Source: an uncultured Rickettsiales bacterium
GTDB taxonomy: Bacteria; Pseudomonadota; Alphaproteobacteria; Rickettsiales; JABDBP01
Direction: 5' to 3'
Length of the DNA stretch: 63,904 nt
NCBI GenBank assembly: GCA_964450945.1
Contig: CAYVHI010000001.1
Span: forward strand, 1-63,904
Positions 16,630-63,152 of the stretch are shown here, piece by piece (the stretch's first letter is position 1; every line of letters starts with the position of its first letter). The notes beneath the pieces are model-generated. The model was not told the origin of the DNA and did not search any database. It saw only the letters and a program-made list of their open reading frames with translations. Both the position numbers and the translations under genes were made by a program.

Positions 16630-16732
16630 AACTTAAGAATATCCTTATAAATCAATATATTATATTTAGTATACTGTAATAAACCTGTAATCTTAGTGGG
16701 TTATAATGATAAGTACATCATACCCCAAAGGT

Positions 16733-16837
16733 TATAGAACAATACAGTTCTGAAAAAAAACACTGCAACAAGTTATGCCGAAAGGCTAAAAGGCTTTAAG
16801 AGCCTCTTGTAAAGCAGATGAACTGTAATGTTCTATA
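16733..16837 (+). ncRNA. Structured 5' leader of cassette 1
   Basis: Arms tatagaacaatacagttc / gaactgtaatgttctata enclose nested stems ctgc/gcag and acaag/cttgt plus hairpins gcc-gaaa-ggc and aggct-ttaag-agcct. Confidence 0.55.
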
Positions 16838-16865
16838 TACCCTCCGGAAAAAAAGGAGGTGTATG

Positions 16866-17315
16866 ATGGCCCGCAAGAAGAAGGAAAAACCTGACCGGAA
16901 GCCAGACCCAAAGCCAGAGGCGCTGCCGCCACCCGAAGAAATCAAGGTGAAAATCAAATCGAAGATGACAGGCAACATCTTCGGTGAGACGCCGGTCTAC
17001 AAATGGCCGGAGAAGCCTGAGAACTGGCGGATGGATTGGCCGCCAGAGCGCCAAAAGGTCGACATGGCAACAGAGTTCCTTACCTTTGAACTCGTCGGCC
17101 TGCCAGAAGGTGTTCGCGGTGAAGGGGCAGCCAACTGGTTCAAACTGAAGGGAAAGGTTAATAAACCCTTCACGCTGGTGGTGATTAGGCTCGGTCAGTC
17201 ACCAAACTGCGGAGAGGTGCTGTTAGAGAAAAAGTTCGAGGTCGGTAACATCGAATTCAAGCACTCTTTCTCCTACGCCATGCAACTGCTAGAGATCACC
17301 TATACCTTCGCCTAA
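16866..17315 (+). CDS. Cassette ORF, hypothetical (149 aa)
   Basis: Preceded by aggaggtgtatgATG and followed by a hairpin at 17337..17372. Confidence 0.7.
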   Translation: MARKKKEKPDRKPDPKPEALPPPEEIKVKIKSKMTGNIFGETPVYKWPEKPENWRMDWPPERQKVDMATEFLTFELVGLPEGVRGEGAANWFKLKGKVNKPFTLVVIRLGQSPNCGEVLLEKKFEVGNIEFKHSFSYAMQLLEITYTFA

Positions 17316-17413
17316 GGTGTAAGTGAAAAACCAACCGACCTCCCACACTAAAGCCAATAGTGTGGGAAGGCCGGGCGGTAAATTCAGAAAATCTCCCATA
17401 AAACCCCCTACAT

Positions 17414-17429
17414 TTAACAAAACCTTAAC
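17414..17429 (+). promoter_or_regulatory. CtrA-type box of cassette 2
   Basis: ttaacaaaaccttaac, with a -10-like tattat 22 nt downstream. Confidence 0.6.
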
Positions 17430-17482
17430 ACTATATCTCCCTAATTTTTGGTATTATTCAGGCTCGCCCTACCATTTCAACT

Positions 17483-17627
17483 GGTTACAGAACTTTAAAT
17501 TTTGTTCTTTTCATCTCAAACATAGCTGGCCATCGGCCATAGCAACAAACCACGGCTTAAACATTGCCCTAGGTTTTGCGTCGCTATGATTTTTGAGTAA
17601 AAGAACAAAATTTAAAGTTCTGTGACC
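17483..17627 (+). ncRNA. Structured 5' leader of cassette 2
   Basis: 29-bp closing stem ggttacagaactttaaattttgttctttt / aaaagaacaaaatttaaagttctgtgacc (one G-U pair); inner catagc/gctatg multibranch. Confidence 0.65.
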
Positions 17628-17646
17628 CAAGCTGGGAGTCAGTTCG

Positions 17647-17949
17647 ATGACCGAGATCAAGGACATCTTCGTGGGCTGGGTCGGCGGGTCTGTGGCCTTC
17701 AGCCACCACGGCAAGAGCGGTACCTACACCGCGACCGCGACGTACTACGACGGCGGCGAGATGAAGCACACGTGGGTGGGCAAGGACGAGAAGTCCCCCC
17801 ACCAGCAGCACTGCTTCCCGATGTACCGTCCGCTCGGCAACGAGAAGCCGGGCGAGCCGAACCTCGGCGGCGGCATCGTCAGCGTCAAGGTGACGGACGA
17901 GGCCGGGGTGGTGGTCCTCGAGTTCGACGCGACGAAGAGCGGCATCTGA
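17647..17949 (+). CDS. Cassette ORF, hypothetical beta-rich protein (100 aa)
   Basis: Codons almost all end in G/C; nested terminator at 17963..18013. Confidence 0.75.
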   Translation: MTEIKDIFVGWVGGSVAFSHHGKSGTYTATATYYDGGEMKHTWVGKDEKSPHQQHCFPMYRPLGNEKPGEPNLGGGIVSVKVTDEAGVVVLEFDATKSGI

Positions 17950-18042
17950 TCTGAATGAACGATAACCCCGTCTGTACAAGCTTCCATAGTAAGGAAGAAG
18001 TACAGCGGGGTTAGGCGTTTTAAAGCCCTGCATCTCCTACAT

Positions 18043-18087
18043 TTCATAAAACCTTAACTTTATTAAAACCCCTAGATTTGCTATAAT
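18043..18087 (+). promoter_or_regulatory. CtrA-like box plus -10 of cassette 3
   Basis: ttcataaaaccttaac followed 23 nt later by tataat (gctataat). Confidence 0.55.
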
Positions 18088-18203
18088 TTCCGCTTCAATC
18101 ACATTGCAGGATGCAAGTGTAAGCCTGGCGGGAAAATAGGCACCCACCAGTTCCCTATAGTTTTGTGTAACTTTGAGTTCGCCCTGAAAGAGAAGGTGTT
18201 TCA

Positions 18204-18431
18204 GTGAAGGTCGAAAGGAAGTTCAGTGTCACCGTCACGTACGATGACACCAGCGAAACGGCCCACGTCACGGGCTACCACACCAAGCCGTTCTGTGTCG
18301 CCATCATGAAGGGCCGCGCTAACCTGGCCACCAAGCGCTACCCCGCCAACCAGAACCACGATGACTACTTCAAGGTCGAGACGGCCCCGAAGGAGTCGGA
18401 GATCACCATCGTGATCTACGAATCCAGGTAG
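18204..18431 (+). CDS. Cassette ORF, hypothetical (75 aa)
   Basis: GTG start after agaaggtg; GC-rich codons; strong hairpin at 18436..18483. Confidence 0.7.
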   Translation: MKVERKFSVTVTYDDTSETAHVTGYHTKPFCVAIMKGRANLATKRYPANQNHDDYFKVETAPKESEITIVIYESR

Positions 18432-18484
18432 TCAATCTACCGGCTTCCTGCTGCCAAGCCTTAAGGCAGCAGGGGCCGGTGGAT

Positions 18485-18559
18485 TTAACAAAACCTTAAC
18501 ACTAAAAAACCCTAAAATACTATATAATCTGCGGTTCATCGTACCCTCGGGTTATAGAA
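18485..18559 (+). promoter_or_regulatory. CtrA box, -10 and leader start of cassette 4 (repeat copy 1)
   Basis: ttaacaaaaccttaac...tataat; 18496..18559 is identical to 19100..19163 (64 bp). Confidence 0.7.
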
Positions 18560-18670
18560 GTCTTTCTTCTTTCAAAATCACATCATGAGCAAGCCTAGCA
18601 AAGGTTGCCTGGAATGTGTTGAAGAACAGATTATCTATAAGCCCGCGAAGAGAAAGTCAGGAGGTGTATG

Positions 18671-19006
18671 ATGGAACTGTTCAACGGGCACGGCATCATG
18701 GTGACCGACAATGGCAAGAACATCGTCATCAAGGTCACCGGCAGCACCGCCAAGGTGGCGATCACCCCGCAGTTCATCGGCTACTACGTCGATGAGCCGC
18801 CACGGGCGATCATGATGCCCAAGTGCCAGCCCGTCACCGTTACCGGGAACGACATCGGAACGCTCACCGTCATCCTGCCCAAGGTCAGGGTGGAGACGGT
18901 CATCGGCACGGACGATGGCAAGAAGTCGGTCCGCCCGGTGATGACGGCCCTGATGCTGGAGATGCCGCAGGAAACCAAGTACTTGAGCATCGAGGAAGAC
19001 AACTAA
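18671..19006 (+). CDS. Cassette ORF, hypothetical beta-rich protein
   Basis: aggaggtgtatgATG; GC-rich codons; terminator at 19019..19064. Confidence 0.75.
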   Translation: MELFNGHGIMVTDNGKNIVIKVTGSTAKVAITPQFIGYYVDEPPRAIMMPKCQPVTVTGNDIGTLTVILPKVRVETVIGTDDGKKSVRPVMTALMLEMPQETKYLSIEEDN

Positions 19007-19088
19007 GCAGTAAATGATAACCCCCTTTCATACCTTCGTAGGTATGTCGCCTCAGGGGGTTTTTCATTTTAAAAAACTCCCTGCCCTT

Positions 19089-19163
19089 TTAACAAAACTT
19101 TAACACTAAAAAACCCTAAAATACTATATAATCTGCGGTTCATCGTACCCTCGGGTTATAGAA
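19089..19163 (+). promoter_or_regulatory. CtrA box, -10 and leader start of cassette 5 (repeat copy 2)
   Basis: ttaacaaaactttaac plus the 64-bp block identical to cassette 4. Confidence 0.7.
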
Positions 19164-19275
19164 CCACCGTTCTCCAAAACATACCACACTGTGCTACATA
19201 ACTTCGTGAGTTATGGCTGAAGTGTCGGTTGGAGGCGACCTCTATACCTGTGAAAAGAGAGTTAGGAGGTGTATG

Positions 19276-19605
19276 ATGAAGCTGCGCTACGAGATGCCCG
19301 TCGAGCACCTGAGCTACAGCGTCGAGATCGAGGCGAAGAGGGTGAGCGACTGGGTGGACGAGATCATCGTCACCATCGACTGCAGCAAGAGCGCGCAGGA
19401 CGTGTGGGTGCGGATCAGGATCCTCGGCGACGGCGTGGCCACGGTCTACTGCCGGGGTCACCAGAGCACCCGCAAGGTCCTGACCCTGGACAGCTTCAAC
19501 GACAACAGCAGCACGCCGCTCATCATCGGCGGCACGATCATCATCAAGGAGATGGAGATCGAGGAGACGAGCGGTGAGATCTTCAGGATGGAGTACAAGT
19601 ACTAG
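19276..19605 (+). CDS. Cassette ORF, hypothetical beta-rich protein (109 aa)
   Basis: aggaggtgtatgATG; GC-rich codons; terminator at 19617..19665. Confidence 0.75.
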   Translation: MKLRYEMPVEHLSYSVEIEAKRVSDWVDEIIVTIDCSKSAQDVWVRIRILGDGVATVYCRGHQSTRKVLTLDSFNDNSSTPLIIGGTIIIKEMEIEETSGEIFRMEYKY

Positions 19606-19616
19606 TAGAAAATAAG

Positions 19617-19665
19617 AACCCCCCTATTACACCGCGCAAGGTGTATCGCCCAAGGGGGGTTTTTT
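19617..19665 (+). terminator. Intrinsic terminator with bulged inner hairpin
   Basis: aacccccc..tacacc-loop-ggtgta-tcgcc..ggggggtttttt; homologous to 19019..19064. Confidence 0.7.
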
Positions 19666-19701
19666 AACGCTTTGTTTTTTCTATTAATTTTCTTAAAAAA
19701 A

Positions 19702-19745
19702 CTGTCATAAAACGTACTTAAAAAGGTCATAATTCCGTCATAAAA
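19702..19745 (+). promoter_or_regulatory. Pho-box-like direct repeats
   Basis: GTCAT at 19704, 19726 and 19737 (11-bp phasing); the first reads CTGTCATAAAA. Confidence 0.45.
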
Positions 19746-19795
19746 TAATGCTACATTTTAGTATCATATACTAAGATTAAGGGAGTAATGAAGTT

Positions 19796-20257
19796 ATGTG
19801 GAGACCAGATACATTAGGATTAATAAATCGTTTTACCAGCGGAAAAATCATTGAGGATTTTAAGGAAGCATTCGAAGGACTTTCAGTAATGTTTTCGAAT
19901 TTATTTGGCGGTGGCCAGGATAAGCAAGCTCAAGGCCATGGAGATGTCAGCCCTTCCACAGCACCTAACCGTTCTGGTGGAAGAGGTCAGCAGGTTGATA
20001 GCGAGGGTTATGCTTTGAATAAGGATGGTACTCACGTAGTAGAAATAGTTGGTGATAATAGCTACACTGTAAGCAGTTATAAGGATGGAAAAGGCAACTC
20101 TATAAGCAAGGGTCAATTTGATAGGATTATAGAAGAAGCCAGGGAAAGAGCGGGTCCAATCCAAGGAACATATAGGGGTGGTGATGAGAAAGGTACCACA
20201 GTAAAAGCCGCCGCTTCTCCCGGTGAAGCAAAATCAGGCCATCGTCAAGTTTCTTAA
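19796..20257 (+). CDS. Hypothetical protein
   Basis: 153 aa ORF with host-like composition, RBS gggag upstream. Confidence 0.6.
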   Translation: MWRPDTLGLINRFTSGKIIEDFKEAFEGLSVMFSNLFGGGQDKQAQGHGDVSPSTAPNRSGGRGQQVDSEGYALNKDGTHVVEIVGDNSYTVSSYKDGKGNSISKGQFDRIIEEARERAGPIQGTYRGGDEKGTTVKAAASPGEAKSGHRQVS

Positions 20258-20385
20258 AAAAACTACTGTCTATAAGGAAGTTTTTCATTTTAAATGCCAA
20301 AATCAAACATTTCTTGATTTTTTTCCCCCAAGGCCTATAACTACGCTTCTCACATAAAATCAGACAGAAAGAAGATAGTATTTTT

Positions 20386-21963
20386 ATGCCTAAAGTATTG
20401 ATTTCAGATAAGCTAAGCCAGCAGGCTGTAGATATATTTAAAAAGAACAAGGTCGATGTTGATGTAAAAACCGGCCTCTCTGAAGATGAGCTGATTAAAA
20501 TCATCGGCGAATATGATGGCCTTGCCATCCGCTCTGCAACAAAGGTTACCAAAAAGGTACTTGAAGCTGCCAAAAAATTAAAAGTTGTCGGCCGCGCCGG
20601 TATTGGTGTTGATAACGTGGATATCCCTGCTGCAACAGCGGCGGGCATAATCGTAATGAACACACCTTTTGGCAACTCCATAACTACTGCTGAACATTCA
20701 ATCGCGCTTATGATGTCACTCGCGCGTGAGATTCCTGCTGCTAATACTTCTACTCAGGCTGGCAAGTGGGAGAAAAATAAATTCATGGGTGTTGAGCTTT
20801 ATTCAAAAACCCTTGGTCTCATTGGTTGCGGCAATATAGGCTCTATAGTTGCTGACCGCGCTCAGGGGCTAAAAATGAAAGTCGTTGTGTATGATCCGTT
20901 CTTAACGCCGGAGCGCGCAAAAGACATAAACGTTGAAAAAGTTGAGCTTGATGATCTGTTAAAACGCGCGGATTTCATATCTCTCCACACACCACTCAAT
21001 GAACAGACAAAAAATATTTTGAATAAACAATCGCTGGCAAAATGCAAGAAAGGTGTTCGCATTGTTAACTGCGCACGCGGCGGCCTGGTTGATGAAAATG
21101 CCCTCAAGGAAGCAATTGATTCCGGCCATGTTGCGGGTGCGGCGTTTGACGTATTCACCGAAGAACCGGCAAAAACAAATCCGCTTTTCGGTTCGGAAAA
21201 AACCGTGTGCACACCGCATCTTGGCGCTTCAACATCTGAAGCTCAGGAGAATGTGGCGCTCCAGGTTGCTGAACAGATTTCAGAATACTTAACAACTGGC
21301 ACAGTAACCAACGCAATCAATATGCCTTCGGTCTCCGCTGAGGATGCAGCGAAGTTAAAACCATACCTGCAGCTTGCGGATCAGCTTGGCAGCTTCGCCG
21401 GCCAGCTCACAGAGAGCGCAATAAAAGCAATCAAGATTGAATATGAAGGTTCGGTTGCGGAACTTAACACAAGGCCGATCACCGCGGTTCTTGTTAAAGG
21501 GCTTCTCACTCCGCTGGTTGAAGGTGTGAATATGGTGAACGCTCCTGTTGTTGCCAAGGAGCGCAATATAAAGATCAGTGAAGTTAAAAATGAAGAGTGT
21601 GATGATTATCAAACAATCATCCGCTTAACAGTCACAACAGAAAAGCGTGACCGTACAATCACCGGAACACTTTTCGGCGGCACAAAACCACGTATCGTGG
21701 AAGTCGGCGGCATCAAGCTTGAAGCTGGTTTAGGGCCACGCATGCTTTATGTTAATAATGAAGATAAACCGGGTTTAATCGGCAATCTTGGAAAACTTCT
21801 TGGTGATGCTGGTGTTAATATCGCGAACTTCAATCTGGGGCGTAACGATGCCAAGAATGATGCGATAGCGTTACTTGAAATCGATCAGGAAATTTCCAAG
21901 GATGTCTGTGAAAAGATCGGCAAGCTGCCAAGCGTTAAACAAGTTAAGGTGATGAAGTTTTAA
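20386..21963 (+). CDS. serA: D-3-phosphoglycerate dehydrogenase
   Basis: GRAGIGVDNVD, NTPFGNSITTAEH, GCGNIG, TPHLGAST.EAQ, C-terminal ACT domain (D.PGLIG). Confidence 0.97.
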   Translation: MPKVLISDKLSQQAVDIFKKNKVDVDVKTGLSEDELIKIIGEYDGLAIRSATKVTKKVLEAAKKLKVVGRAGIGVDNVDIPAATAAGIIVMNTPFGNSITTAEHSIALMMSLAREIPAANTSTQAGKWEKNKFMGVELYSKTLGLIGCGNIGSIVADRAQGLKMKVVVYDPFLTPERAKDINVEKVELDDLLKRADFISLHTPLNEQTKNILNKQSLAKCKKGVRIVNCARGGLVDENALKEAIDSGHVAGAAFDVFTEEPAKTNPLFGSEKTVCTPHLGASTSEAQENVALQVAEQISEYLTTGTVTNAINMPSVSAEDAAKLKPYLQLADQLGSFAGQLTESAIKAIKIEYEGSVAELNTRPITAVLVKGLLTPLVEGVNMVNAPVVAKERNIKISEVKNEECDDYQTIIRLTVTTEKRDRTITGTLFGGTKPRIVEVGGIKLEAGLGPRMLYVNNEDKPGLIGNLGKLLGDAGVNIANFNLGRNDAKNDAIALLEIDQEISKDVCEKIGKLPSVKQVKVMKF

Positions 21964-21969
21964 AACAAA

Positions 21970-22020
21970 AGAGGGAGGGGTGTTTCCCCACATGCTTTCG
22001 CATGTGGCACCCCTCCCTCT
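21970..22020. terminator. Bidirectional terminator between serA and the pilin cassette
   Basis: agagggaggggtg...cacccctccctct with inner ccacatgc-tttc-gcatgtgg. Confidence 0.7.
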
Positions 22021-22023
22021 AGC

Positions 22024-22260
22024 TTACACCGGAGGATCCGGTTTCGGCTCAGACGGTTTCAGCGCATCATTTGACCCAAGGGTCGTGACCGCCGCGATAC
22101 AAACCACTATGATCAGTGCCAGCATCACCGCGTACTCGACTTGCGTCGGGCCATCCTCGCGCTTCAAGAAATCAGTCAAGCTACGAACCAGCGGAGACTT
22201 CGGCTGTTTGCCCGACTCCTCCGGAGGACCCGTAGTTGTGACGTCTTTCTCGCCCGCCAT
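22024..22260 (-). CDS. flp: Flp/Fap-type (type IVb) pilin, cassette-like
   Basis: FLKREDGPTQVEYAVMLALIIVVCIAAVTTLG pilin motif; RBS gaaagggggtgataaacATG. Confidence 0.8.
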   Translation of the reverse strand: MAGEKDVTTTGPPEESGKQPKSPLVRSLTDFLKREDGPTQVEYAVMLALIIVVCIAAVTTLGSNDALKPSEPKPDPPV

Positions 22261-22441
22261 GTTTATCACCCCCTTTCGTTGGCGTGTATGGCGTTACCGC
22301 ACCAATCCATTGGGTACACCCCAACAGCCGTGCAGACATCAAGGGAGCATTATACCAGCCAAATATTACTGTTTTATTAATAAAATTACTTTTCTTTTAT
22401 AAAAAATACTTATTAATCAATATATTATTCAAGACGGGTCT

Positions 22442-22457
22442 TTAAACCTTTCTTAAC
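22442..22457 (+). promoter_or_regulatory. CtrA-type box
   Basis: ttaaacctttcttaac, 22 nt before the 22480 ATG. Confidence 0.55.
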
Positions 22458-22479
22458 CATAGTCAGTTACCCTATAGCT

Positions 22480-23850
22480 ATGGTTAATAATACTTTACTC
22501 GAAGATACGCTTAACAGGCTGCAGGTTGAAACGGCTAGGGTGAATTTCATCACCAAACCCGGATACATGGGTATTAAGGTGAAATTGGACCATCCTTTTG
22601 ACCACATTCTGAAAGGTTATAAAGGCGATAAGGCAACCCTTCTCAGGGCGGCGGAAATGTTATATCGGCTGGTTCCGGTTTTTCCGCGCGATGAAAAACA
22701 TTTTTTTGATGGTCTTGGTGAACTTAGAAAAATCATTGATGCAAAAAATTCTGTCAGCCTCACCAGTACCCAACTTAAAGATTTCCATACAAAATACTTA
22801 GATGGCCTTAAGGTTTTATACGAGGATATTTGTTTTAAATTCCCCCAAACCCTGCATGATGATCAATCCAAGCTGGATAAAGATTATAAATCAAGGCCAG
22901 CAATCATCATGCGCGCTCCTGATGATTCCAATCAGAGCCTAAGAACTATTAATATAAATCTGGAAAGAAGGTTCCGGTGGGAGGCATTACGCCGCGTGCT
23001 GGAGGAAGAAGGCGCACGCGTCATTGTTGTTGAACCTTCAAGATCATATATTACCGGCAGGAATGAGGTTTTCCCGCGGGATCCATTATTTATTGATGGG
23101 AGCGGAAATATCTATCTTCCTTCCGTCGGGACAAGATCAAACTTCCAAGTACTTGCCCATGAGCAGCCGGGTATTGTTGCAAAAATCATCGAGGAAGGTT
23201 TGGTGCGCTCGGAAAAACCTTATCACAAAAAAATGACAGATATGGAGATAAGAAGGAATTTAGAAACCTTCACTTCACGCTTTGTAGAAATGCAGCACTG
23301 CAGTATCGAGTGGGGCAATGTTGTCTATGATAAAACCCGCAACATTATCTTTCTGGGTGTTCATCAGGTTGAAGGGAAGATACACCCTTACTCAGCATTA
23401 AATGCCCTTGAAATAGCCAGGGTAACAGGTATCAAAGTAGTTCCTGTCCCCTTAACACAACCAAAATATTATCACCTTGATACCTTCATGCGCATCCTTG
23501 AAGATGGAGTAATTGAAATTTACCCACATGCAACCAATGAAGAAGGTATAAGAAATATTCTTGATGCAACCGGCCTGAAATATGAAAATCTTAAAATCTT
23601 AAAAGAGGGTCAGGCAAGTAAACTGGGTGCCAACTCCGTTTCTCTTCCAGATAAAAAAGTTATTCTAACCAGTGATGATGAGGAAATGGAAAGAGATCTT
23701 ATAGAAAGAGGTTTTATGCCGGTTAGTCCAAAAACATATAATCTGCCGTTTGATACTTTTGCTTACGGAGATGGCGGCGTGCATTGCCTTACACTTGAGG
23801 CTTATGCCCTACAGGAAGCATTGCAAAGAAGGAATGAAAAGGGAAAATAA
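22480..23850 (+). CDS. Amidinotransferase/arginine-deiminase-superfamily (pentein) protein with N-terminal extension
   Basis: VFPRDP, EWGNV (EGGD-like), YHLDT and C-terminal GGVHCLT with the catalytic Cys. Confidence 0.75.
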   Translation: MVNNTLLEDTLNRLQVETARVNFITKPGYMGIKVKLDHPFDHILKGYKGDKATLLRAAEMLYRLVPVFPRDEKHFFDGLGELRKIIDAKNSVSLTSTQLKDFHTKYLDGLKVLYEDICFKFPQTLHDDQSKLDKDYKSRPAIIMRAPDDSNQSLRTININLERRFRWEALRRVLEEEGARVIVVEPSRSYITGRNEVFPRDPLFIDGSGNIYLPSVGTRSNFQVLAHEQPGIVAKIIEEGLVRSEKPYHKKMTDMEIRRNLETFTSRFVEMQHCSIEWGNVVYDKTRNIIFLGVHQVEGKIHPYSALNALEIARVTGIKVVPVPLTQPKYYHLDTFMRILEDGVIEIYPHATNEEGIRNILDATGLKYENLKILKEGQASKLGANSVSLPDKKVILTSDDEEMERDLIERGFMPVSPKTYNLPFDTFAYGDGGVHCLTLEAYALQEALQRRNEKGK

Positions 23851-23851
23851 T

Positions 23852-30877: not shown

Positions 30878-30968
30878 AAATTTACTATGAAGTTCTATAA
30901 TATAATATAAAAGTTAAAAAATTATTACTGAAAACACTTTTACATAACATACTGTAATATAAAAAGAT

Positions 30969-31547
30969 TTATCCAGGAGAATTCACGCCCTCCCCATCAC
31001 TGTCCCGCCCTTTGGAAAGCGAAATGACCGCAGTCCTTACTTCTTTCAGGTCTTTAACAAACATCGTAAATGAAGTGTAAGGTTCGCCAAAGGAGACAAT
31101 AGCGCCAAACTCCCCCATCTGCCTGTCATATTCTCTTCTGTTATTTTGCTGCATTACTGCTGCTGCATGATCAGTTATCGACTTTACCCCGGTTTCAACT
31201 ACACCTATATTTTCTAATGTAAAATATGCCTGGAGTTCTGTTGGATGATTCTGGTTATAAAGCAGGTTGCGCCAGCGATAGCCGCTCTCTGCCTCATGCC
31301 TGATTTTGAATCCGGCATCTAATGTGCCGGTTATGATTCTAACAAATCCTTCTAATATTCTTTCCAGTTCTTCCGGCCTTATCATTTCGGGGTGAGTAGA
31401 AAGAGGCCTATATGCATCAAGTAATCTTCCTGGCCCTTCATCGGCAATAAACATCGCCAGTTGATTGAAGGCATTGGTGCCATAAACATCAACATCCCTT
31501 ATCTGGCTGGCCTGGTTTCTTATTAATCTTTTTAATCTGTCATCCAT
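30969..31547 (-). CDS. Hypothetical protein
   Basis: 192 aa ORF downstream of dusB. Confidence 0.65.
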   Translation of the reverse strand: MDDRLKRLIRNQASQIRDVDVYGTNAFNQLAMFIADEGPGRLLDAYRPLSTHPEMIRPEELERILEGFVRIITGTLDAGFKIRHEAESGYRWRNLLYNQNHPTELQAYFTLENIGVVETGVKSITDHAAAVMQQNNRREYDRQMGEFGAIVSFGEPYTSFTMFVKDLKEVRTAVISLSKGRDSDGEGVNSPG

Positions 31548-31577
31548 AAGTCTATTCTAAACTTACTAGATTAAAAA

Positions 31578-32555
31578 TCAGTTAATGAATGATGAGAAAA
31601 ACACCCTTATCGATTCCCTTATCTGTTCTGCATCCGTCTTCTTATTTATATTATGCCTGAATTCAGCAGAACTCTTAAGGCCAGCAGAATACCAGCCGAT
31701 ATGTTTCCTGAAAATCCTAACCCCTGCATCGTTGCCATAAAGGTTTAAGGTTTCCTCAAAATGCTCAAGTATTATGGCAAGCTGCTCATTCATATCAGGA
31801 GCTATTGTTTTTTCACCGGTCTTCAAGTAATTCACCACTTCACGCAGGAACCATGGCTTTCCGTAAGCACCCCTTCCTATCATCACGCCATCCGCGCCAG
31901 ATTGCTCGAGTGCTGCTTTTGCTTTTTCTGAAGTTGTTATATCGCCGTTTACTACAACAGGAATCCCTACCGCATCCTTAACATTCCTAATAAAGCTCCA
32001 GTCTGCTGTTCCGTTATACATCTGGCATCTTGTGCGGCCGTGCACGGTTATCATTTTTATGCCCACATCTTCTGCTATTTTTGCAAGTTTCGGCGCATTT
32101 AAGTTTTTTTCATCCCAGCCTTTTCTCATCTTGAGCGTAACTGGGATTTTTACTGCCTTCACGGTTGCCTCAAGTATCTTGGCTGCCTTTTCTTCATCAC
32201 GCATCAATGCACTTCCAGCATGGCCATTTACGGCAACTTTTTTTACCGGGCAGCCGAAATTTATATCAATTATCTGCGCCCCCAAATCTTCATTGAGCTT
32301 TGCAGCTTCTGCCATTTCGGCAGGTTCACAGCCGGCAAGCTGCACAGACATTGGGAACTGTTCAACTTCAGCCCTTGCCTTCTGCATTGATTCACGGGTT
32401 TTCATTATCATTGCACGTGATGCAATCATTTCAGAAACCACGAGTCCTGCCCCATAGCGTTTTACTATCCGCCTGTAAGGCAGGTCGGTGACTCCCGACA
32501 TAGGTGCCAGGATAACATTATTTTCGAGCGCAATATTTCCAATTGTTATGGACAT
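31578..32555 (-). CDS. dusB: tRNA-dihydrouridine synthase B
   Basis: [37 protein letters not shown]. Confidence 0.96.
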
Positions 32556-35621: not shown

Positions 35622-35885
35622 AAAAACTCCCTTTCCGAATATAAAAAATTTATGGAAGGGTTATAACAAATGAATGTTAAAGTTATATGAAACCGGTATT
35701 AAAGTTTTGTTAAACGTAAGGGTTTTAGTGTTGTTGCACCCTGGTGGTGGTGTATAAGAAATCTACATATAGAAAAAACTTTGTAAAACTATCAATATAT
35801 AGTATTATATCTATCCGGTTGATATCTTTAGAATTTATTAACCTTTGGGTTGTAGAATATCAGCTGAAAAGGGAGAGTATTACTT

Positions 35886-49207: not shown

Positions 49208-49251
49208 TTCATAAAACTTTAACACAAAAAGCCTGTTTTTTTTGCTATAAT
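49208..49251 (+). promoter_or_regulatory. CtrA-like box plus -10 of the bolA/grxD array
   Basis: ttcataaaactttaac ... gctataat (22 nt gap to tataat). Confidence 0.6.
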
Positions 49252-49256
49252 CCACT

Positions 49257-54869: not shown

Positions 54870-54932
54870 CTCCTTTCGGTGCCGTTAAATGCCTTAAGAA
54901 ATCCATAACAACGGGGTGGCCAATCACCTTGT

Positions 54933-55280: not shown

Positions 55281-55320
55281 GAGGCTTTCTCCAAAAAAAG
55301 ACAAGGTTCTGAAAAAACCT

Positions 55321-55396
55321 CTTCTCTGTTCCAAGAGTGAAGGGGAGTGCCTTTTTTATACGGCCATTTCTGACCTAAGGCGAAACCCCTTCATCC
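55321..55396 (-). repeat. Motif C intergenic structured repeat, copy 1
   Basis: gaaggggtttcgccttaggtcagaaatggcc...aggcactccccttc; also at 55778..55845 and 57215..57290. Confidence 0.75.
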
Positions 55397-55401
55397 TTTT
55401 T

Positions 55402-55734: not shown

Positions 55735-55777
55735 AACTTTTCTCCTTTTGGGCGAAAGTTGTGGGATCAGAAAACCT

Positions 55778-55845
55778 CTTCTCTGTTCCGAAAGTGAAGG
55801 GGAGTGCCTTTTTATGCGGCCATTTCTGGCCTAAGGCAAACACCT
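55778..55845 (-). repeat. Motif C copy 2
   Basis: gccttaggccagaaatggccgcataaaaaggcactccccttcactttcggaacagagaag. Confidence 0.75.
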
Positions 55846-55857
55846 CCACCCCAAAAA

Positions 55858-56118
55858 TTATTTGTCCCTTGTTGACGGCCACTCCGCTAAGGGAGTGACA
55901 TCATCAACAAAGGCCCAAACTTTGACGTACACAACCTTCCGGTTATAGTATGTCTGGGTCCAGATTTCTTCTCCTTCCGGGGGAGAAACGCTGTAATACC
56001 AGCTTGGAATGGTTGCCCCTTCCAAGCCGACTTCAACATCAACCGGTTCCTTCCGGTTGATACCGTTGATCAAGACACAATTTTTTTCCTGATCAACGTA
56101 GGCCCGGATTTTTGCCAT
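55858..56118 (-). CDS. Cassette ORF, small beta-rich family 1
   Basis: gaaaggaggtgagaaagATGGC; PVDVEVG...VYVKVW...PLAEWP. Confidence 0.75.
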   Translation of the reverse strand: MAKIRAYVDQEKNCVLINGINRKEPVDVEVGLEGATIPSWYYSVSPPEGEEIWTQTYYNRKVVYVKVWAFVDDVTPLAEWPSTRDK

Positions 56119-56237
56119 CTTTCTCACCTCCTTTCTTTGGCGGTTAGATGACAAATGATCGAAGCTATCGGAAGCACGCAAGGAAACGATCCATGCATGA
56201 TTGTTTATGGTTTTTTATGTTTTTGGATTTCTATTTA

Positions 56238-56376
56238 GGAAGGCAAGGCGAACACCACGAAGGCCGTTTGTCTTGTCTGGAATGCCATGCCCACAGGTGG
56301 GTTTGGCACTTAATGAACCGCCATCTTTCCAAGAATGTTTTGCATTCCTTAACCTTAAAAAGAGGCAATTTAAGAA
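56238..56376 (-). ncRNA. Motif B copy 2
   Basis: aaattgc..ttaagga..gcggttca..acccacctgtggg; promoter box at 56409..56424. Confidence 0.65.
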
Positions 56377-56505
56377 CTTACATTATAGCAAATATGTAAA
56401 AGGTTAGTGTTACAGTTTTGTGAAATATGAAGGATATTTAAAATAAAAAACCCTCCTGGTCATCCCTTTGTCTTTTTAAGACTTAGGGTGCCGGAGGGTT
56501 CCTTT

Positions 56506-56856
56506 TTACTCTTCTTCCTCTTCGAATGGGCCGTTTTCTTTTTCCCACTCTTTTAAGGAAGTAAGTGTTAAATGTGGACAAATTGTTGTTTCCCCTGGCC
56601 TTAAAAGGTGGGGATACATACTGAATGTCCACTCCTCAACAAAAACAACCTCACCTTGGTTGGAGATTTTTGCGTTTCCACTGCCACTCTTAAAAGAGAA
56701 GCTGTGGGAAACACTTATCTCCACTGCATCCTCAACCAGTACTTTATCTTTTGGTTTGAGGTTGCAGTAACCGCCCCTTTTTCTTTTAAGGCAGCTCCAC
56801 TCAACATGGATGTTATTTCCACCCACGTTTTTTATGAGAACTTTGTTTTCTGGCAT
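56506..56856 (-). CDS. Cassette ORF, family 2
   Basis: gaaaggaggtaaaATG; nested terminator at 56452..56503. Confidence 0.7.
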   Translation of the reverse strand: MPENKVLIKNVGGNNIHVEWSCLKRKRGGYCNLKPKDKVLVEDAVEISVSHSFSFKSGSGNAKISNQGEVVFVEEWTFSMYPHLLRPGETTICPHLTLTSLKEWEKENGPFEEEEE

Positions 56857-56886
56857 TTTACCTCCTTTCAGGTTAGTGCCAAAAAA

Positions 56887-57123
56887 TCAAAATCTCTCCC
56901 AAACCGCTAACTCTTGGTAATGGGGAGAACCCATAACTTTCACCTCACAAATACGTGAGAGGAATCGCTTCCTCCACACATTTGGCTTTCTCATGTCCTC
57001 TTCATCGAGGACATAAGAAACTTCAGCTCCATCTTTTAACAGGATCTCAATCTGGACTGGCAGGTATGCTGCCAGCCCCGTAACGACTATATTTTTGCCG
57101 TTACGGGAGACTTTGATTTCCAT
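56887..57123 (-). CDS. Cassette ORF, small beta-rich family 1
   Basis: agggaggtaatATG; EIKV...V.TGL....PV, ICEVKVM...LAVW. Confidence 0.7.
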   Translation of the reverse strand: MEIKVSRNGKNIVVTGLAAYLPVQIEILLKDGAEVSYVLDEEDMRKPNVWRKRFLSRICEVKVMGSPHYQELAVWERF

Positions 57124-57214
57124 ATTACCTCCCTTAAGGTATTGTTGCAGCAACACCATAAAAAAAGAAAGAACATCACCCAGTAAAAACAACGGGGCGG
57201 CCGGATGGCCAGAA

Positions 57215-57290
57215 CTTCCCTGTTCCGAAGATGAAGGGGAGTGCCTTTTTATGATACCATTTCTGGCCTAAGGCGAAACCCCTTCATCCT
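57215..57290 (-). repeat. Motif C copy 3
   Basis: ggatgaaggggtttcgccttaggccagaaatgg...aggcactccccttcatcttcggaacagggaag. Confidence 0.75.
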
Positions 57291-57302
57291 TTTCCAAAAG
57301 TC

Positions 57303-57623
57303 TTAGCCAGTCAATTCCGGCGGCGGAATTGTTGGACTTTGAGGTGGGGGTGGCGGCGGAACATCGCTTTCCGACTTCCACTGAGCAAGAGGAGGAGGAT
57401 TCTCCTCCTCGCTGAACCCGTATCCCCAGACTGCGACGTAATTGATTGGTCGCAGCCGGGAAACACAGCCCCAGCTTTTCTCGCCGCGCTCGGGTACGCT
57501 ATGGTACCAATCGCAATGATTGGTTCCATAATACCCGATCTGGACATCTACGGGATCGATGTGATCCAGCCCCGTAATGATGACGCCGCGGTGAGTTTCT
57601 GCCACCTTGATCTCGACTGCCAT
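57303..57623 (-). CDS. Cassette ORF, small beta-rich family 1 with Pro-rich tail
   Basis: Same RBS context as 56118; PVDVQIG...INYVAVW...PLAQWK. Confidence 0.75.
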   Translation of the reverse strand: MAVEIKVAETHRGVIITGLDHIDPVDVQIGYYGTNHCDWYHSVPERGEKSWGCVSRLRPINYVAVWGYGFSEEENPPPLAQWKSESDVPPPPPPQSPTIPPPELTG

Positions 57624-57740
57624 CTTTCTCACCTCCTTTCTTTGGTGGTTAGATGACAATGGATAGAGGCTATCGGAAGCACGCATGGAAACGATCCATG
57701 CATGATGCTTGGTTTTTTGTTTTTGGATTTCTATGTGATG

Positions 57741-57875
57741 AAGCAGGCTGCGGCACTAAAGCCAGTTTATCCTGCTTAGAATATCATCCCCACAGGTGGG
57801 TCTGATACTTTTTGAACCGCCATCTTTCCAAGAATGTTTTACATTCCTTAACCTTAAAAAGAGGCAATTTAAGAA
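57741..57875 (-). ncRNA. Motif B copy 3
   Basis: Part of an ~310-bp duplication (57624..57935 vs 56119..56435); promoter box at 57908..57923. Confidence 0.65.
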
Positions 57876-58000
57876 TTTACATTATACCAAATAAGTAAAA
57901 GGCTAGTGTTACAGTTTTATGAAATATGAAGGGGTTTTTCTTTGGCCTTTAAAATGCGAAAACCCCCGTGCCTTTTAAGCTATTCGGGGGTTTTCTTCGG

Positions 58001-58210
58001 TTAGAACTGAAGGAAGATGAGCTGTTCTCCACGACAGACTGCTTCCTCCATGGAAGCGTAGATTGCGATCGTGTCGAGGAGCTTGGCCTTATAAGTCTCG
58101 TTCTTCTTCAGCTGGACGATGTTCCCGTTCACGAAGAGAACAATATCCTTCGCCGCTCCCACCTCGTAGTCCGAGATGGTGAAGTGAGGCGTCATCAGAA
58201 ACCCGAGCAT
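58001..58210 (-). CDS. Cassette ORF, hypothetical (69 aa)
   Basis: agaggatttaccATG; GC-rich codons; terminator gaaaaccccc..gggggttttc. Confidence 0.6.
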   Translation of the reverse strand: MLGFLMTPHFTISDYEVGAAKDIVLFVNGNIVQLKKNETYKAKLLDTIAIYASMEEAVCRGEQLIFLQF

Positions 58211-58329
58211 GGTAAATCCTCTACAGTTGGTAACAGTAAGCCCAACTGTTATTGGAAAGCCACTTGCTTGCGGAACAATTCCGCTGCATTAGTGGATAAG
58301 GCACGAACTTTGGTGTTGGGATTTATATT

Positions 58330-58472
58330 TGAAAAAGTAAGGCTACAGCTTTCGCCAGTTTATCTTACCTGAATATCATGCCCACAGGTGGGTTGATATT
58401 TAATGAACCGCTTTATATTCAAGAAATATCCGTGTGGATAATCCTTAAGCCTGAACATAAGCAATTTGAATG
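58330..58472 (-). ncRNA. Motif B copy 4
   Basis: Near-identical to 49257..49400; promoter box at 58505..58520; motif D at 58260..58302. Confidence 0.7.
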
Positions 58473-58533
58473 AACCAATTATAGCAAAAGAACAATACTT
58501 TTGTGTTACAGTTTTATGAAATATGTGGGGTTA

Positions 58534-59019
58534 CTATTCCTGTATAATCTCTATACAGTTAGATCCTGGGGCATCACAGTTTATATCATCTTGAACTGCC
58601 GGAGCAGAAGGCACAGCGGCCGGAGCGCTTGCTGTTGTATTGACCTCCGCAGCACTAGGGGCCGGAGCGGTATTTCTGGTGTTAACCACAGCCTGACCTT
58701 TGAATGTAGGTACATTTTGTTGGTTTGAAGAGCCGTTTTGCAGTAAAGATGGGTTACCGGCAACCCCTCTACCAAGCAATCCTTCTGCCTTGCTGTTAAC
58801 GTAGACAGCTTTTGTATTTTTTGATTGTGAGTTTAGCCTATTAAAGAATTCCGGGTCTTTATAACCTGTGATTACGCCGCCACTTGCATATGGGTTCTGA
58901 ACAGGAACATCAACACCTGCATCTGGTGTGGGCCCAGAAGGGATTGAAAGCTCCGCTCTGGCTCCGCCAGATATCAAGAAGCAGGTAATACCCAAAATAT
59001 AGCAAATTTTCTTAATCAT
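58534..59019 (-). CDS. Secreted hypothetical protein
   Basis: MIKKICYILGITCFLISGGARA signal peptide; low-complexity APA tract; C-terminal Cys pair. Confidence 0.7.
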   Translation of the reverse strand: MIKKICYILGITCFLISGGARAELSIPSGPTPDAGVDVPVQNPYASGGVITGYKDPEFFNRLNSQSKNTKAVYVNSKAEGLLGRGVAGNPSLLQNGSSNQQNVPTFKGQAVVNTRNTAPAPSAAEVNTTASAPAAVPSAPAVQDDINCDAPGSNCIEIIQE

Positions 59020-59257
59020 TTTTCCTCACTCTTATATCATTCTAACACATATTTATTAATGTAAGATTAATTTTTTGTTTCATTTTATTTCGCCCAACAT
59101 ATTGATATTGTTATATAATTCTCTTCGATAACTAGCGTTAACAATGGTTAAACTAGTTCAAATTTTAGCTATCTGATAAAAAATAGTATGGATTATGTAA
59201 TCAAAAATTCACACTTTCTGGGATATAAATCTTTATAATTAGCCCTGTTCTACTGTC

Positions 59258-59375
59258 TTTTCAGGAAGATTAGTTATGGTGCCAGAAATGGTACTGAAAA
59301 AATACTCAAAAGCACTTTAGTGCTTGAAGCCGGCCCCTTTGCCGTCTTTATGAGTTAACTAATCTTCCTAAAAAG
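59258..59375 (+). ncRNA. Structured 5' leader of the thiC-proximal cassette
   Basis: Perfect 14-bp stem aggaagattagtta / taactaatcttcct; inner gtgcca-gaaa-tggtac, actca/tgagt and aagcac/gtgctt stems. Confidence 0.6.
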
Positions 59376-59399
59376 CTAGTAGGATGGAGGATTCCAGCC

Positions 59400-59540
59400 A
59401 TGTTCGACCCGCTCGGTTTCGCCAAAAAGTCGTGGACGGAGATCGGCATCACGCTCGGCGCGGTTATCATCGGCGTGACGGTGGCCGTCTACATCGCGTT
59501 CCCGGTGATCAAGATGTTCATCGAAAACATGAAGCCGTAA
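59400..59540 (+). CDS. Cassette ORF, 46 aa single-TM peptide
   Basis: ggaggattccagccATG; MFDPLGFAKKSWTEIGITLGAVIIGVTVAVYIAFPVIKMFIENMKP; GC-rich codons; terminator cagacccc..ggggtctg. Not in the ORF track (under 60 aa). Confidence 0.65.
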   Translation: MFDPLGFAKKSWTEIGITLGAVIIGVTVAVYIAFPVIKMFIENMKP

Positions 59541-59684
59541 CGCCAAACCGGCGTTACACGGAGCAGACCCCCCGAGTGGGGTCTGTTTCATTTTAAACGC
59601 CTTGTAGTCGACATATTAATAAGAAGAAAAGAAACCTGTGGTTTACTAATTTATCTAATCTGCTAAAACAATTCCATTCCCTAA

Positions 59685-61622
<1,938 letters not shown>

Positions 61623-61625
61623 ATA

Positions 61626-62246
61626 ATGAATCTATTGCTTATTAAAGAAATAGCTATACCTGTTTTTTGTACGGCACTTGGTGCGCTTTTAAACAGATAC
61701 TTAGAGCTTAAACCAAAACTAATTGTCTACTATAGCCATATATCACATTTCAATATGGATATAAAATCAACCAAACAAATTGTTAATACTCATACAATTG
61801 TTGTAAAAAATATAGGAAAGAAAACTGCTAATAATGTTCGTATTGCTCACAACATTCTTCCTCCTGATTTTAGTGTATCTCCAGCAAATTATAGTGTTAT
61901 AGATTTGCCAAATGGGGGTAAGGAAATTTTAATTCCTAAAATCGTACCTTATGAAGAATATACTATTTCATATTTATACCTCCCTCCATTAATGTTTAAT
62001 CAAATTAACGGAGTTGTAAAATCTGACGAAGGTTTGGCAAAAGGGATTTCTATTCTTCCTGTGCCGCAACCTCCAAAATGGAAATTAAATTTATTAAGAT
62101 TTTTAGTTTTAATGGGTTTTATTTTTACTCTCTATATTATTATAGAATTGGGAAAAATATTACCCATCCCTAATATTACAGAGCAGATGCGAGGAGTATA
62201 CGGAGCGGAGCGCACGAGTGTACTTGATGGGTACATGAGGGCGTGA
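61626..62246 (+). CDS. Hypothetical membrane protein
   Basis: N- and C-terminal TM segments around a beta-rich core; the last ~23 codons come from a repeat. Confidence 0.7.
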   Translation: MNLLLIKEIAIPVFCTALGALLNRYLELKPKLIVYYSHISHFNMDIKSTKQIVNTHTIVVKNIGKKTANNVRIAHNILPPDFSVSPANYSVIDLPNGGKEILIPKIVPYEEYTISYLYLPPLMFNQINGVVKSDEGLAKGISILPVPQPPKWKLNLLRFLVLMGFIFTLYIIIELGKILPIPNITEQMRGVYGAERTSVLDGYMRA

Positions 62247-62276
62247 GCACTGGAGCGACGATGCAGATTCCTGTAA
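62176..62276. repeat. RPE-like palindromic element, family 1 (degenerate)
   Basis: Core gagtgtacttgatgggtacatgag..gtgagcac; arms ttacag / ctgtaa. Confidence 0.55.
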
Positions 62277-62384
62277 GATTAAAACTCCCCCCCTCCTTTA
62301 AAAAAGAAAACCGCCGGACGGGGCGGCGGTTTCTTGTCGAGGTTAATTTTACCAGCTAGGCTCGCTGGTCCTTTTTCGGCTTAA

Positions 62385-62519
62385 TCAGCCGAAAAAACGG
62401 TAGATTTCTTCAGCTTTCGCAGGGAGTGGAACCGGGAACTTTGCCTTTCGCCGAAGTTTCGGCGGCGGGCAGTTTTCCGGTGACACCCACGGCGTTCTTA
62501 GGCCCATTTTCTTGGCCAT
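62385..62519 (-). CDS. Cassette ORF, 44 aa basic Pro-rich peptide
   Basis: gaaaggaggatagctacaATG; MAKKMGLRTPWVSPENCPPPKLRRKAKFPVPLPAKAEEIYRFFG; promoter box 62635..62650; terminator aaaccgccg..cggcggttt. Confidence 0.5.
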   Translation of the reverse strand: MAKKMGLRTPWVSPENCPPPKLRRKAKFPVPLPAKAEEIYRFFG

Positions 62520-62717
62520 TGTAGCTATCCTCCTTTCTTGGGCGATATGCTTAAGACTTTTTAGGGCCCGTCACCCTAAAAAGTCGAAAGTCCAAACTGA
62601 ACTTAACTGAACGTTTCAGTTATACACCTAAATTGTTAAAATTTTATGAATGGAGAATTTTTTTTGACTTTAAACGGTTCGGGGCCCCACTCCTTTAGAG
62701 AGGGGGCCCCGATGTTT

Positions 62718-62972
62718 TTATACTGGTTGTTTATCCTCTGGCCAGTATGCCAGGTAGCCTCGGCTTCGTTTGGTCATCACCATGACGCAGGTGATGATTT
62801 TCTCAGAATTCCCGCCTGTCGCTTCAATCACGTCGTCGAATCCCTCGCAGGTTCCGTCATCATATTGGATGATGACATCGATTCCTGTGATTGTCAGATC
62901 AAGCAACTTGACACTGGCTTCGTGCTTGTCACTGCTGACGTTGATTGCGACGCTCTTGGTAGCCTTCGTCAT
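62718..62972 (-). CDS. Cassette ORF, small beta-rich family 1
   Basis: aggaggtgtgtgATG; ends IITCVMVM...YLAYWPED; terminator cggggcccc..ggggccccg. Confidence 0.7.
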   Translation of the reverse strand: MTKATKSVAINVSSDKHEASVKLLDLTITGIDVIIQYDDGTCEGFDDVIEATGGNSEKIITCVMVMTKRSRGYLAYWPEDKQPV

Positions 62973-63136
62973 CACACACCTCCTTCTTGATCATGAGTTT
63001 CAGATCAGTGTGGTTCTAACTTGCTACGGGCACTTTGGCCTACTAAGCAAGTAATTTATGAAGAACCAAACTTCTGTTCTGTAACCCAGTGGGTAGTGTG
63101 AACCCAGAATTATATAGGAAATATACTGGTTTTAGT

Positions 63137-63152
63137 GTTAAAGATTTATTAA
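63137..63152. promoter_or_regulatory. CtrA-type box shared by divergent genes
   Basis: Minus strand ttaataaatctttaac, with tataat 22 nt downstream, then ctgggttcacactacccactgggttacagaac (motif A). Confidence 0.6.

Follow-up and report, generated by a model that had tools for sequence, protein, structure and literature searches.

Two spacings of a CtrA-type direct-repeat box in promoters of native genes and orphan cassettes in an uncultured Rickettsiales bacterium

Cassettes, leaders, and promoter sites at the locus

The stretch of DNA analyzed here (the window) covers the opening 63.9 kb of contig C1 (positions 1 to 63,904) in the genome of a small uncultured alphaproteobacterium of the order Rickettsiales; the assembly comprises 1.74 Mb in 70 contigs, with a guanine plus cytosine (G+C) content of ~41% and a completeness rating of 100%. 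Assignment to the class is supported by the presence of a full-length CtrA ortholog and of ChpT. The housekeeping genes of the window (ThrRS, SerA, Ffh, UvrD, ThiC, UbiD) are ordinary. Scattered among such genes throughout the genome are ~50 promoter-bearing cassettes, each consisting of a promoter, a structured leader, a strong Shine-Dalgarno sequence, an orphan open reading frame (ORF) rich in G+C at third codon positions (GC3), and a terminator. GC3 is 0.366 +/- 0.063 in native genes of >= 200 amino acids and reaches 0.97-1.0 in cassette ORFs. The promoters of these cassettes, and those of many native genes, carry a box resembling the CtrA binding site at one of two distances from the -10 hexamer.

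An initial annotation had listed twelve such promoters, using the pattern TT[AC]A-N7-[TG]TAA[CT] (here the broad pattern; the strict box is TTAA-N7-TTAAC) and measuring the gap as the number of nucleotides (nt) between the box and a TATAAT-like -10 hexamer. All nine promoters assigned to the longer gap of 21-23 nt were recovered. On the forward strand, box TTAACAAAACCTTAAC at 17414..17457 (gap 22, TATTAT) drives a cassette ORF at 17647-17949 with a GC3 of 0.97, and the same box at 18485..18528 (gap 22, TATAAT) drives an orphan ORF at 18668-19006 with a GC3 of 0.92; the promoter with box TTAACAAAACTTTAAC at 19089..19132 (gap 22, TATAAT) is a 99% duplicate of the one at 18485. Also on this strand are TTCATAAAACCTTAAC at 18043..18087 (gap 23, TGC-TATAAT) and TTCATAAAACTTTAAC at 49208..49251 (gap 22, TGC-TATAAT), the latter driving a three-ORF cassette with a leader of type B. 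The reverse strand carries TTCACAAAACTGTAAC at 56382..56424 (site 56409; gap 21, TGC-TATAAT), two copies of TTCATAAAACTGTAAC at 57881..57923 (site 57908; gap 21, TGG-TATAAT) and 58478..58520 (site 58505; gap 21, TGC-TATAAT), and TTAATAAATCTTTAAC at 63109..63152 (site 63137; gap 22, TATAAT), which is followed by leader A.

The three sites assigned a gap of 10 nt do have that gap, with reservations about two of them. Box GTAATAAACCTGTAAT (16676-16691, forward strand; TATAAT at 16702-16707) does not fit the broad pattern by which it had been listed; it is the proximal part of a cassette promoter at 16665..16707 with three phased half-sites (TTTAG at 16665, GTAAT at 16676, GTAAT at 16687), the one at 16665 being weak. 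On the reverse strand, box TTCATAAAATTTTAAC at 62619..62650 (site 62635) precedes TATAAC, and its leader paralog at C1 65534, outside the window, has a degenerate box at a gap of 23. The third box, TTAATAAAACAGTAAT at 22349..22380 on the reverse strand (site 22365; TGG-TATAAT), lies upstream of a Flp-type pilin-like gene at 22024-22269. GTCA half-sites occur in none of the twelve listed sites and are found only in other cassettes.

Several cassettes share a leader. Leader A occurs at 16708-16862, 18529-18667, 19133-19272, and 62976-63108, and again within C1 64365-67420; it reads GGTTCA..ACCC..GGGTTAYAGAAC ... GTTnTRTAAC, followed by AGGAGGTG and a double start codon (ATGATG or GTGATG), and its long-range stem shows apparent compensatory changes. 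In leader-A cassettes the conserved, covarying leader begins 3-7 nt past the hexamer, which indirectly favors the assigned -10. A third leader type is common to 62519-62620 and C1 65400-65530. The leader-A signature ACCC-N2-4-GGGTTAYAGAA returned only two identical in-gene chance matches, both in one genome, among 300 genomes of the order, and only scattered single chance matches among those listed from 185,579 species; beyond this genome, these searches thus revealed no leader-A cassette. Interpretation of the cassettes as integron (attC) units was set aside, as every one of them brings its own promoter and terminator along with a conserved element at a fixed distance from the -10. An exact 51-base pair (bp) tandem repeat, CGTGGGAGTGGTTGGGCGAAGCCCAGAGCGACCCGGAAAATTATAAAACTT, occupies 63772-63904 of the window and continues across an assembly gap to ~C1:64140, bordering the cassette array at C1 64.1-68.2 kb; a diverged single copy lies on the other side of that array at ~C1:68215-68260. 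The repeat might mark insertion borders or be a binding array.

Examples of cassettes elsewhere include those at C3:67.7-70.9k, C21:19.3-21.6k, C18:14.6-17.8k, C43:6.2-8.4k, C6:11.0-12.1k, and C7:45039-45419. Cassette ORFs are almost never paralogs of one another, and cassettes on contigs C3, C4, C6, C7, C13, C18, C43, and C52 combine unrelated leaders and ORFs with the same box-to-hexamer distances. A search with one cassette protein found no homolog among 5.8 billion proteins; among ten further cassette ORFs, nine had no Pfam match and the tenth gave only sub-threshold zinc-ribbon matches. The only clear family match among cassette ORFs is a CsrA cassette on C7. FliW, the usual partner of CsrA, is encoded on the same contig behind a native promoter with a 10 nt gap. 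Three short contigs of the assembly, C65, C69, and C70, have G+C contents of 69%, 68%, and 53%, respectively, and are probably bin contamination; cassette ORFs have no detectable protein similarity to them.

Genome-wide distribution of the box and its two distances

The box is strongly enriched. In the window, the broad pattern occurs 24 times, against 8.9 +/- 2.9 in shuffles. The 134 kb of intergenic DNA in the genome contain 179 copies of it, compared with 45.3 +/- 8.1 in dinucleotide-preserving shuffles (z = 16.5; ~4-fold), and the strict box occurs there 68 times against 7.6 +/- 3.2 (z = 18.7; ~9-fold), in agreement with the expectation of the initial annotation that the box exceeds its frequency in shuffled intergenic DNA. 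Control boxes, in which N6 or N8 replaces the N7 of the broad pattern, show no intergenic enrichment genome-wide. The spacing within the box is similarly specific: with TTAA-Nk-TTAAC scanned genome-wide for k = 0 to 15, there are 85 occurrences at k = 7 and 13-47 at every other k.

The distances from the box to the hexamer are discrete. Of all 324 boxes in the genome, 53 have a TATAAT-like hexamer at a gap of exactly 10, against a background of 5.35 per gap (Poisson P = 5e-34); gaps of 21, 22, and 23 account for 17, 15, and 11 boxes, a total of 43 against 16 expected (Poisson P = 2e-8, computed on copies that are partly paralogous). The corresponding histograms for the N6 and N8 controls are flat, with no peak. 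Gaps in use are 10-11 and 21-23 only, with none between, a restriction also seen across 60 further genomes of this order. In a search with broadened half-sites (KTMAY-N6-KTMAY), all 15 variant half-site pair types peak at gaps 10 and 21-23 only. Enrichment of 5-mers anchored on every -10-like hexamer in the genome was too noisy for use.

Structurally, the box consists of two half-sites of 5-6 bp, repeated directly every 11 bp. Both classes can be described with three half-site slots at this period: the two proximal slots are filled in the 10 nt class and the two distal slots in the 21 nt class, and all three are filled in a few promoters (one at 16665-16691 in the window, others on C35, C5, and C58). 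The orientation of the box is the same (direct) in both classes; the orientation-informative columns outside TTAA give scores between +3.6 and +5.8 bits when read directly, whereas reversal yields -4 to -7.5 bits, which rules out a reversed reading of the A-rich boxes. The two classes had been described as one helical turn apart, which is approximately correct, the offset being 11-13 bp with a mode of 12. Face-of-the-helix spacing, proposed along with it, suits a gap of 21 well and gaps of 22-23 loosely.

The class with a 10 nt gap comprises 46 promoters with the broad pattern, nearly all intergenic, and in most of them the hexamer lies 7-60 nt before the gene start. Its consensus is TTAAyvATTynTTAAY with a T-rich spacer; TTAACCATTTGTTAAC is a native box. 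Targets include the Flp-type pilin-like gene (26.5 bits, under the Pfam cut-off of 32.2), FliW, a TPS-domain exoprotein, an RTX protein, and many unannotated proteins; the promoter of ctrA itself has three phased TTAA half-sites, a gap of 11, and the hexamer TAAAAT. With the hexamer placed at -12 to -7, that is, with a predicted transcription start site (TSS) 7 nt after the hexamer, the box spans about -38 to -23. Because its 5' base at ~-38 matches mapped promoters of Caulobacter, this class appears to have the canonical CtrA geometry. The class is conserved: across 60 further genomes of this order, TTAAC-N6-TTAAC with a TATAAT after it turns up 44 times at gap 10 and 15 times at gap 11, against a background of 1.2 per gap.

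In the 21-23 nt class, the box has the form (T)TT[A/C]A[C/T]AAAA[C/T]N[T/G]TAAC(A), with an A-rich spacer (YAAAAYN) that is present in 30 of 42 promoters at this distance versus 13 of 56 in the 10 nt class. By the same TSS prediction, the box spans about -50 to -35, its 5' base at -49 to -51 falling outside the Caulobacter norm. A T-tract and TGn usually precede TATAAT (TGn in 45% of promoters, a T-tract in many), and no -35-like hexamer is present at a 17-nt spacing; TTAACA or GTAACA was ruled out as a -35 hexamer, since this would leave a spacer of 20-22 nt. In 13 non-redundant cassette promoters, the box and the -10 carry 1.69 and 1.93 bits of information per column, respectively, versus 0.29 for the flank upstream of the box and 0.47 for the initial portion of the gap. 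Selection therefore acts on the box and its distance to the -10, which are not simply a product of shared descent. When 30 other genomes were searched with the A-rich-spacer box at gaps of 5 to 30, six of the ten matches fell at gap 22-23 (P = 3e-5): four in genome G059, one in G295, and one in G001. The sites examined, three in G059 and one in G295, precede native AT-rich genes with short leaders; the 21-23 nt class recurs in two other genera. At G059:C2:1414560-1415900 and G295:C1:161200-162300, loci that belong to another family within the order, promoters with the A-rich spacer and a 22 nt gap stand before large unannotated AT-rich genes whose products, judged by eye alone, looked like secreted effectors.

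The two classes differ in the genes they precede, the distinction between foreign and native resting on the G+C content of the downstream sequence. With half-sites broadened to KTMAY, native genes follow 37 promoters at gap 10-11 (28 with both halves TTAA) and 13 at gap 21-23, the majority of the latter being tandem sites or second hexamers; the corresponding counts for GC-rich foreign ORFs are 26 and 24 (Fisher P = 0.04). Half-site type differs with gene type as well. At gap 10, canonical boxes are found in 28 of 37 native promoters versus 5 of 26 foreign ones (Fisher P = 1e-5), and both halves are TTAA in 12 of all 50 foreign-ORF promoters, the remainder carrying TTCA, GTAA, or GTCA variants. 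Two spacing classes for cassette promoters, proposed from twelve sites, hold for ~50, as foreign ORFs with any detectable box use no other gap. The shorter gap, also put forward as a cassette trait, is instead a general native class of ~37 native promoters that includes that of ctrA (gap 11). It is the 21-23 nt register that is used mostly by self-contained cassettes, about two dozen of them.

Candidate regulator and competing explanations

We propose that the promoters of both registers are driven by an OmpR/PhoB-family response regulator, most likely phosphorylated CtrA (CtrA~P), a reading to which we assign a probability of roughly 0.6 from the sequence evidence. The promoters would be of the sigma-70 type without a usable -35 and would depend on the regulator, supplied in phosphorylated form, if it is CtrA, by the CckA-ChpT relay. 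A dimer would bind head-to-tail on two 5-bp half-sites with an 11-bp period and could sit in either of two registers without a change of orientation. In the first, with a gap of 10 nt (rarely 11), the box would occupy about -38 to -23 in place of the -35 element, with the promoter-proximal protomer contacting sigma region 4; this would be the canonical layout of Caulobacter CtrA, PhoB, and PhoP "architecture I", used by native genes. In the second, the box 21-23 nt before the -10 lies one half-site slot further upstream, and activation would proceed via the C-terminal domain of the RNA polymerase alpha subunit (alpha-CTD), as in PhoP "architecture III". We infer that transcription begins ~7 nt past the hexamer, that the regulator activates and does not repress, and which parts of RNA polymerase it contacts.

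The reading of the initial annotation would fail if the genome lacked ctrA; the gene is present on C2. It encodes a full-length protein of 262 amino acids that scores 404.7 bits against the NCBIfam CtrA equivalog NF045991 (cut-off 350) and whose closest solved structure (best PDB match) is the Brucella CtrA receiver. ChpT (PF10090) is found at C42:5104-5454 with 57.2 bits; among 14 control genomes, Caulobacter alone matches this family. The genome encodes four OmpR-family regulators: CtrA, PhoB (346 bits versus the TIGR02154 equivalog), an OmpR-like protein on contig C6, and a KdpE-like protein. Classical CtrA targets with a box here are ctrA itself, the Flp-type pilin-like gene (sub-cut-off), and FliW. 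Canonical half-sites, a 10 nt geometry, autoregulation of ctrA, and targets among pilin and flagellar genes are all in keeping with CtrA, and we therefore infer that CtrA~P is the most probable reader of the boxes, the best candidate but not the sole one.

The further proposal that the foreign ORFs are wired into the CtrA regulon is borne out in part. The presence of ctrA and ChpT, the enrichment of the box, the -38 geometry, and the bimodal gaps favor it. Against it, and against CtrA as the reader of the cassettes, stand several observations. Most cassette boxes are variants (TTCAT, GTAAC, GTAAT, GTCAT), some being near-perfect Pho boxes; both halves are TTAA in only 7 of 24 cassette boxes at gap 21-23, and cassette boxes differ systematically from native ones in the gap 10 comparison given above. 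Boxes of the form TTCAT...GTAAC score 3-5 bits on a matrix of canonical sites, a value that thousands of sequence windows in the genome reach. Gaps of 22-23 lie 12-13 bp from gap 10, which is no exact helical turn, and an extended -10 could free promoters of the second register in part from the need for an activator. Hardly any Caulobacter promoter uses the -49 register (PMC4287350), and TTAA-type repeats are read by other OmpR-family regulators, for example BqsR at TTAAG-N6-TTAAG (PMC4358008).

A tentative alternative is one in which one or more different OmpR/PhoB-family regulators (PhoB, the OmpR-like protein of C6, or several) read the cassette boxes and CtrA reads only the canonical native boxes; we hold this to be possible, at well below even odds. 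PhoB is among the four family members encoded in the genome, and variant half-sites are strongly enriched on foreign ORFs. Outside the window, cassettes at C1 71578, 73399, and 74509 carry GTCATAAATCAGTCAT at gap 10, which we take to match the E. coli Pho box in sequence and position at ~16/18 bases; GTCAT-N6-GTCAT boxes at gap 10, which closely resemble the enterobacterial Pho box, occur in cassettes at C1:71578, 73399, 73952, and 74509 and at about 10.9-11.9k on C7. The common cassette box TTCATAAAACTGTAAC is itself intermediate between Pho-type and CtrA-type half-sites, and the BqsR precedent concerns a regulator other than CtrA. However, eight cassette boxes fall within the native score range, with 12-17 bits against a training range of 12.5-22 (17414, 18485, 19089, 63137, 67446, and 68145, together with 62635 and 64503, which keep one canonical half), and mixed boxes such as GTCATAAAACCTTAAC and TTAATAAAATAGTCAC argue for a single tolerant reader. 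No native Pho promoter was found here to define a local Pho box, PhoU standing alone without a usable upstream region. In Caulobacter, TTCA first halves also occur among CtrA promoters enriched by chromatin immunoprecipitation (PMC4287350).

Two further explanations concern the longer gap. The "box" of the 21-23 nt class might be a contact for RNA polymerase itself, namely an UP-like A-tract for the alpha-CTD, or the conserved end of a mobile cassette, with the extended -10 yielding constitutive promoters. The spacer AAAA at about -45 to -42 lies near what we take to be the proximal UP subsite, TGn and T-tracts are frequent, and the cassettes share leaders and are therefore partly paralogous. 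We nevertheless consider this explanation improbable: the TTAAC/GTAAC half-sites are invariant and repeat every 11 bp, and they contain C and G bases for which an UP element has no requirement; the same box and distance occur before unrelated native genes in two other genera; the box also occurs at gap 10 in paralogous leaders (62635 versus C1 65534); and TTAACA as a -35 would require the 20-22 nt spacer noted above. Still less credible, and in our view very improbable, is that the second class is an artifact of descent, in which one promoter was duplicated often and chance TATAAT-like hexamers arose in AT-rich DNA. Approximately 15 promoters at 21-23 nt do lie in one contig with shared leaders, and the non-cassette "native" matches at this distance are mostly tandem triple half-sites or second hexamers. 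But flanks and gap have diverged to 0.3-0.5 bits per column with box, -10, and distance kept, the unrelated cassettes on eight contigs have the same distances, the occurrences in other genera are independent, and the N6 and N8 controls are flat.

The box could also be regarded as an evolvable "adaptor" that plugs acquired orphan genes into host two-component regulons, with a single OmpR-family direct-repeat design shared by all ~50 cassettes. A shift by one slot would alter the mode or strength of activation, one or two substitutions per half-site (TTAAC, TTCAT/GTAAC, GTCAT) would switch a gene between the CtrA and PhoB regulons, and a symbiont could in this way time a private gene set to a developmental stage. 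We offer this as speculation and think it unlikely as a whole; if true, the cassette set may comprise host-interaction proteins.

Relation to known systems and further features of the window

The closest match to the native class is the set of full-motif CtrA promoters of Caulobacter crescentus (TTAA-N7-TTAA; ctrA P2, fliQ, ccrM, cpaB), which have the same half-sites and 11-bp period as the boxes described here; ctrA autoregulation, control of pilus and flagellar genes, and, given the predicted TSS, the geometry of the 10 nt class would likewise be shared. Of the 44 full-motif promoters listed in the Caulobacter TSS atlas, 32 have the 5' base of the motif at -37 to -40 (Zhou et al., 2015, PMC4287350, dataset S5); ctrA P2 is at -39, five promoters are one turn downstream, and only one is at -49 (PMC4287350). 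Caulobacter thus has essentially no class one turn upstream, whereas about two dozen such promoters are present here, with an A-rich spacer subtype, a tie to orphan cassettes, and a predicted reader.

For the two registers, the closest precedent is PhoP of Salmonella, an OmpR-family regulator whose architectures I and III place a direct-repeat box in direct orientation at two distances. A box 11-12 nt before the -10 activates without the alpha-CTD, one 21-23 nt before the -10 requires it, and there is little expression between or beyond the optimal distances; whether a gene is ancestral or horizontally acquired correlates with the architecture of its promoter (Zwir et al., 2012, PMC3335776). 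Differences from the present case lie in the regulator, the motif, the phylum, and the proximal distance (12 there, 10 here), and in Salmonella both single-box architectures serve mainly ancestral genes, whereas here the upstream register belongs to acquired genes.

Promoters of E. coli PhoB have two direct repeats with an 11-bp period that take the place of the -35 and lie 10 bp before the -10. In exactly this position, GTCATAAATCAGTCAT is present in several cassettes that are not among the listed sites; the listed sites carry TTAAC, TTCAT, or GTAAC, not CTGTCAT, and no Pho-regulon gene context was found. PmrA, through tandem TTAAT boxes on effector genes of Legionella and Coxiella, offers an example of a large lineage-specific gene set wired to one regulator in an intracellular bacterium. 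BqsR of P. aeruginosa, also of the OmpR family, reads its tandem repeat at a position overlapping the -35 (PMC4358008). Both systems are from Gammaproteobacteria, and no ortholog of either was identified among the four OmpR-family proteins here. CtrA full-motif promoters and the two-register architecture of the OmpR family are thus known already; we found no description of an upstream register of a CtrA-type box that is distinct and conserved, has a spacer subtype of its own, and is strongly associated with orphan cassettes.

If correct, this interpretation provides a rule, readable from sequence, for the CtrA-type regulon in uncultured Rickettsiales-like bacteria (box, exact distance, -10 hexamer), one that would flag orphan genes switched on together. 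It would extend the two-register logic of PhoP to a CtrA-type box, with the upstream register linked to acquired genes, and offer a concrete model of how foreign genes gain regulation in a reduced genome.

The window contains additional promoters missed by the initial annotation, those with a 10 nt gap including, on the reverse strand, TTAATGAATTATTAAC at 7796..7827 (site 7812; TATAAT), GTAATAATTTTTTAAC at 30897..30928 (site 30913; TATTAT), and TTAACTGATTTTTAAT at 31554..31585 (site 31570; TAGAAT), the last lying 7 nt before a native gene at 30969-31547. Also on the reverse strand, tandem boxes TTAACAAAACTTTAAT (site 35698) and TTCATATAACTTTAAC (site 35676) lie 22 nt apart at 35660..35713, the proximal box having a gap of 10 to TATAAC, and TTAATCTTACATTAAT at 59039..59070 (site 59055; gap 10, TAGAAT) precedes the gene for a secreted 161-amino acid protein (58534-59019). 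A further promoter with a gap of 10 was found at 35827. On the forward strand, the variant box GTAATCAAAAATTCAC at 59197..59239 (gap 21, TATAAT) is upstream of the leader of thiC (59694-61622). The 450-nt region upstream of thiC (59240-59693) contains a 27-nt inverted repeat; an Rfam scan of the window gave no family match anywhere, and no thiamine pyrophosphate (TPP) riboswitch above threshold upstream of thiC. Between box and -10 in several cassette promoters, a short inverted repeat AAAACAG-N-CTGTTTT is present, at C1 68145, 67446, and 65101 and at 49224-49245 in the window; it could be an operator, or mere pairing of an A-tract with a T-tract.

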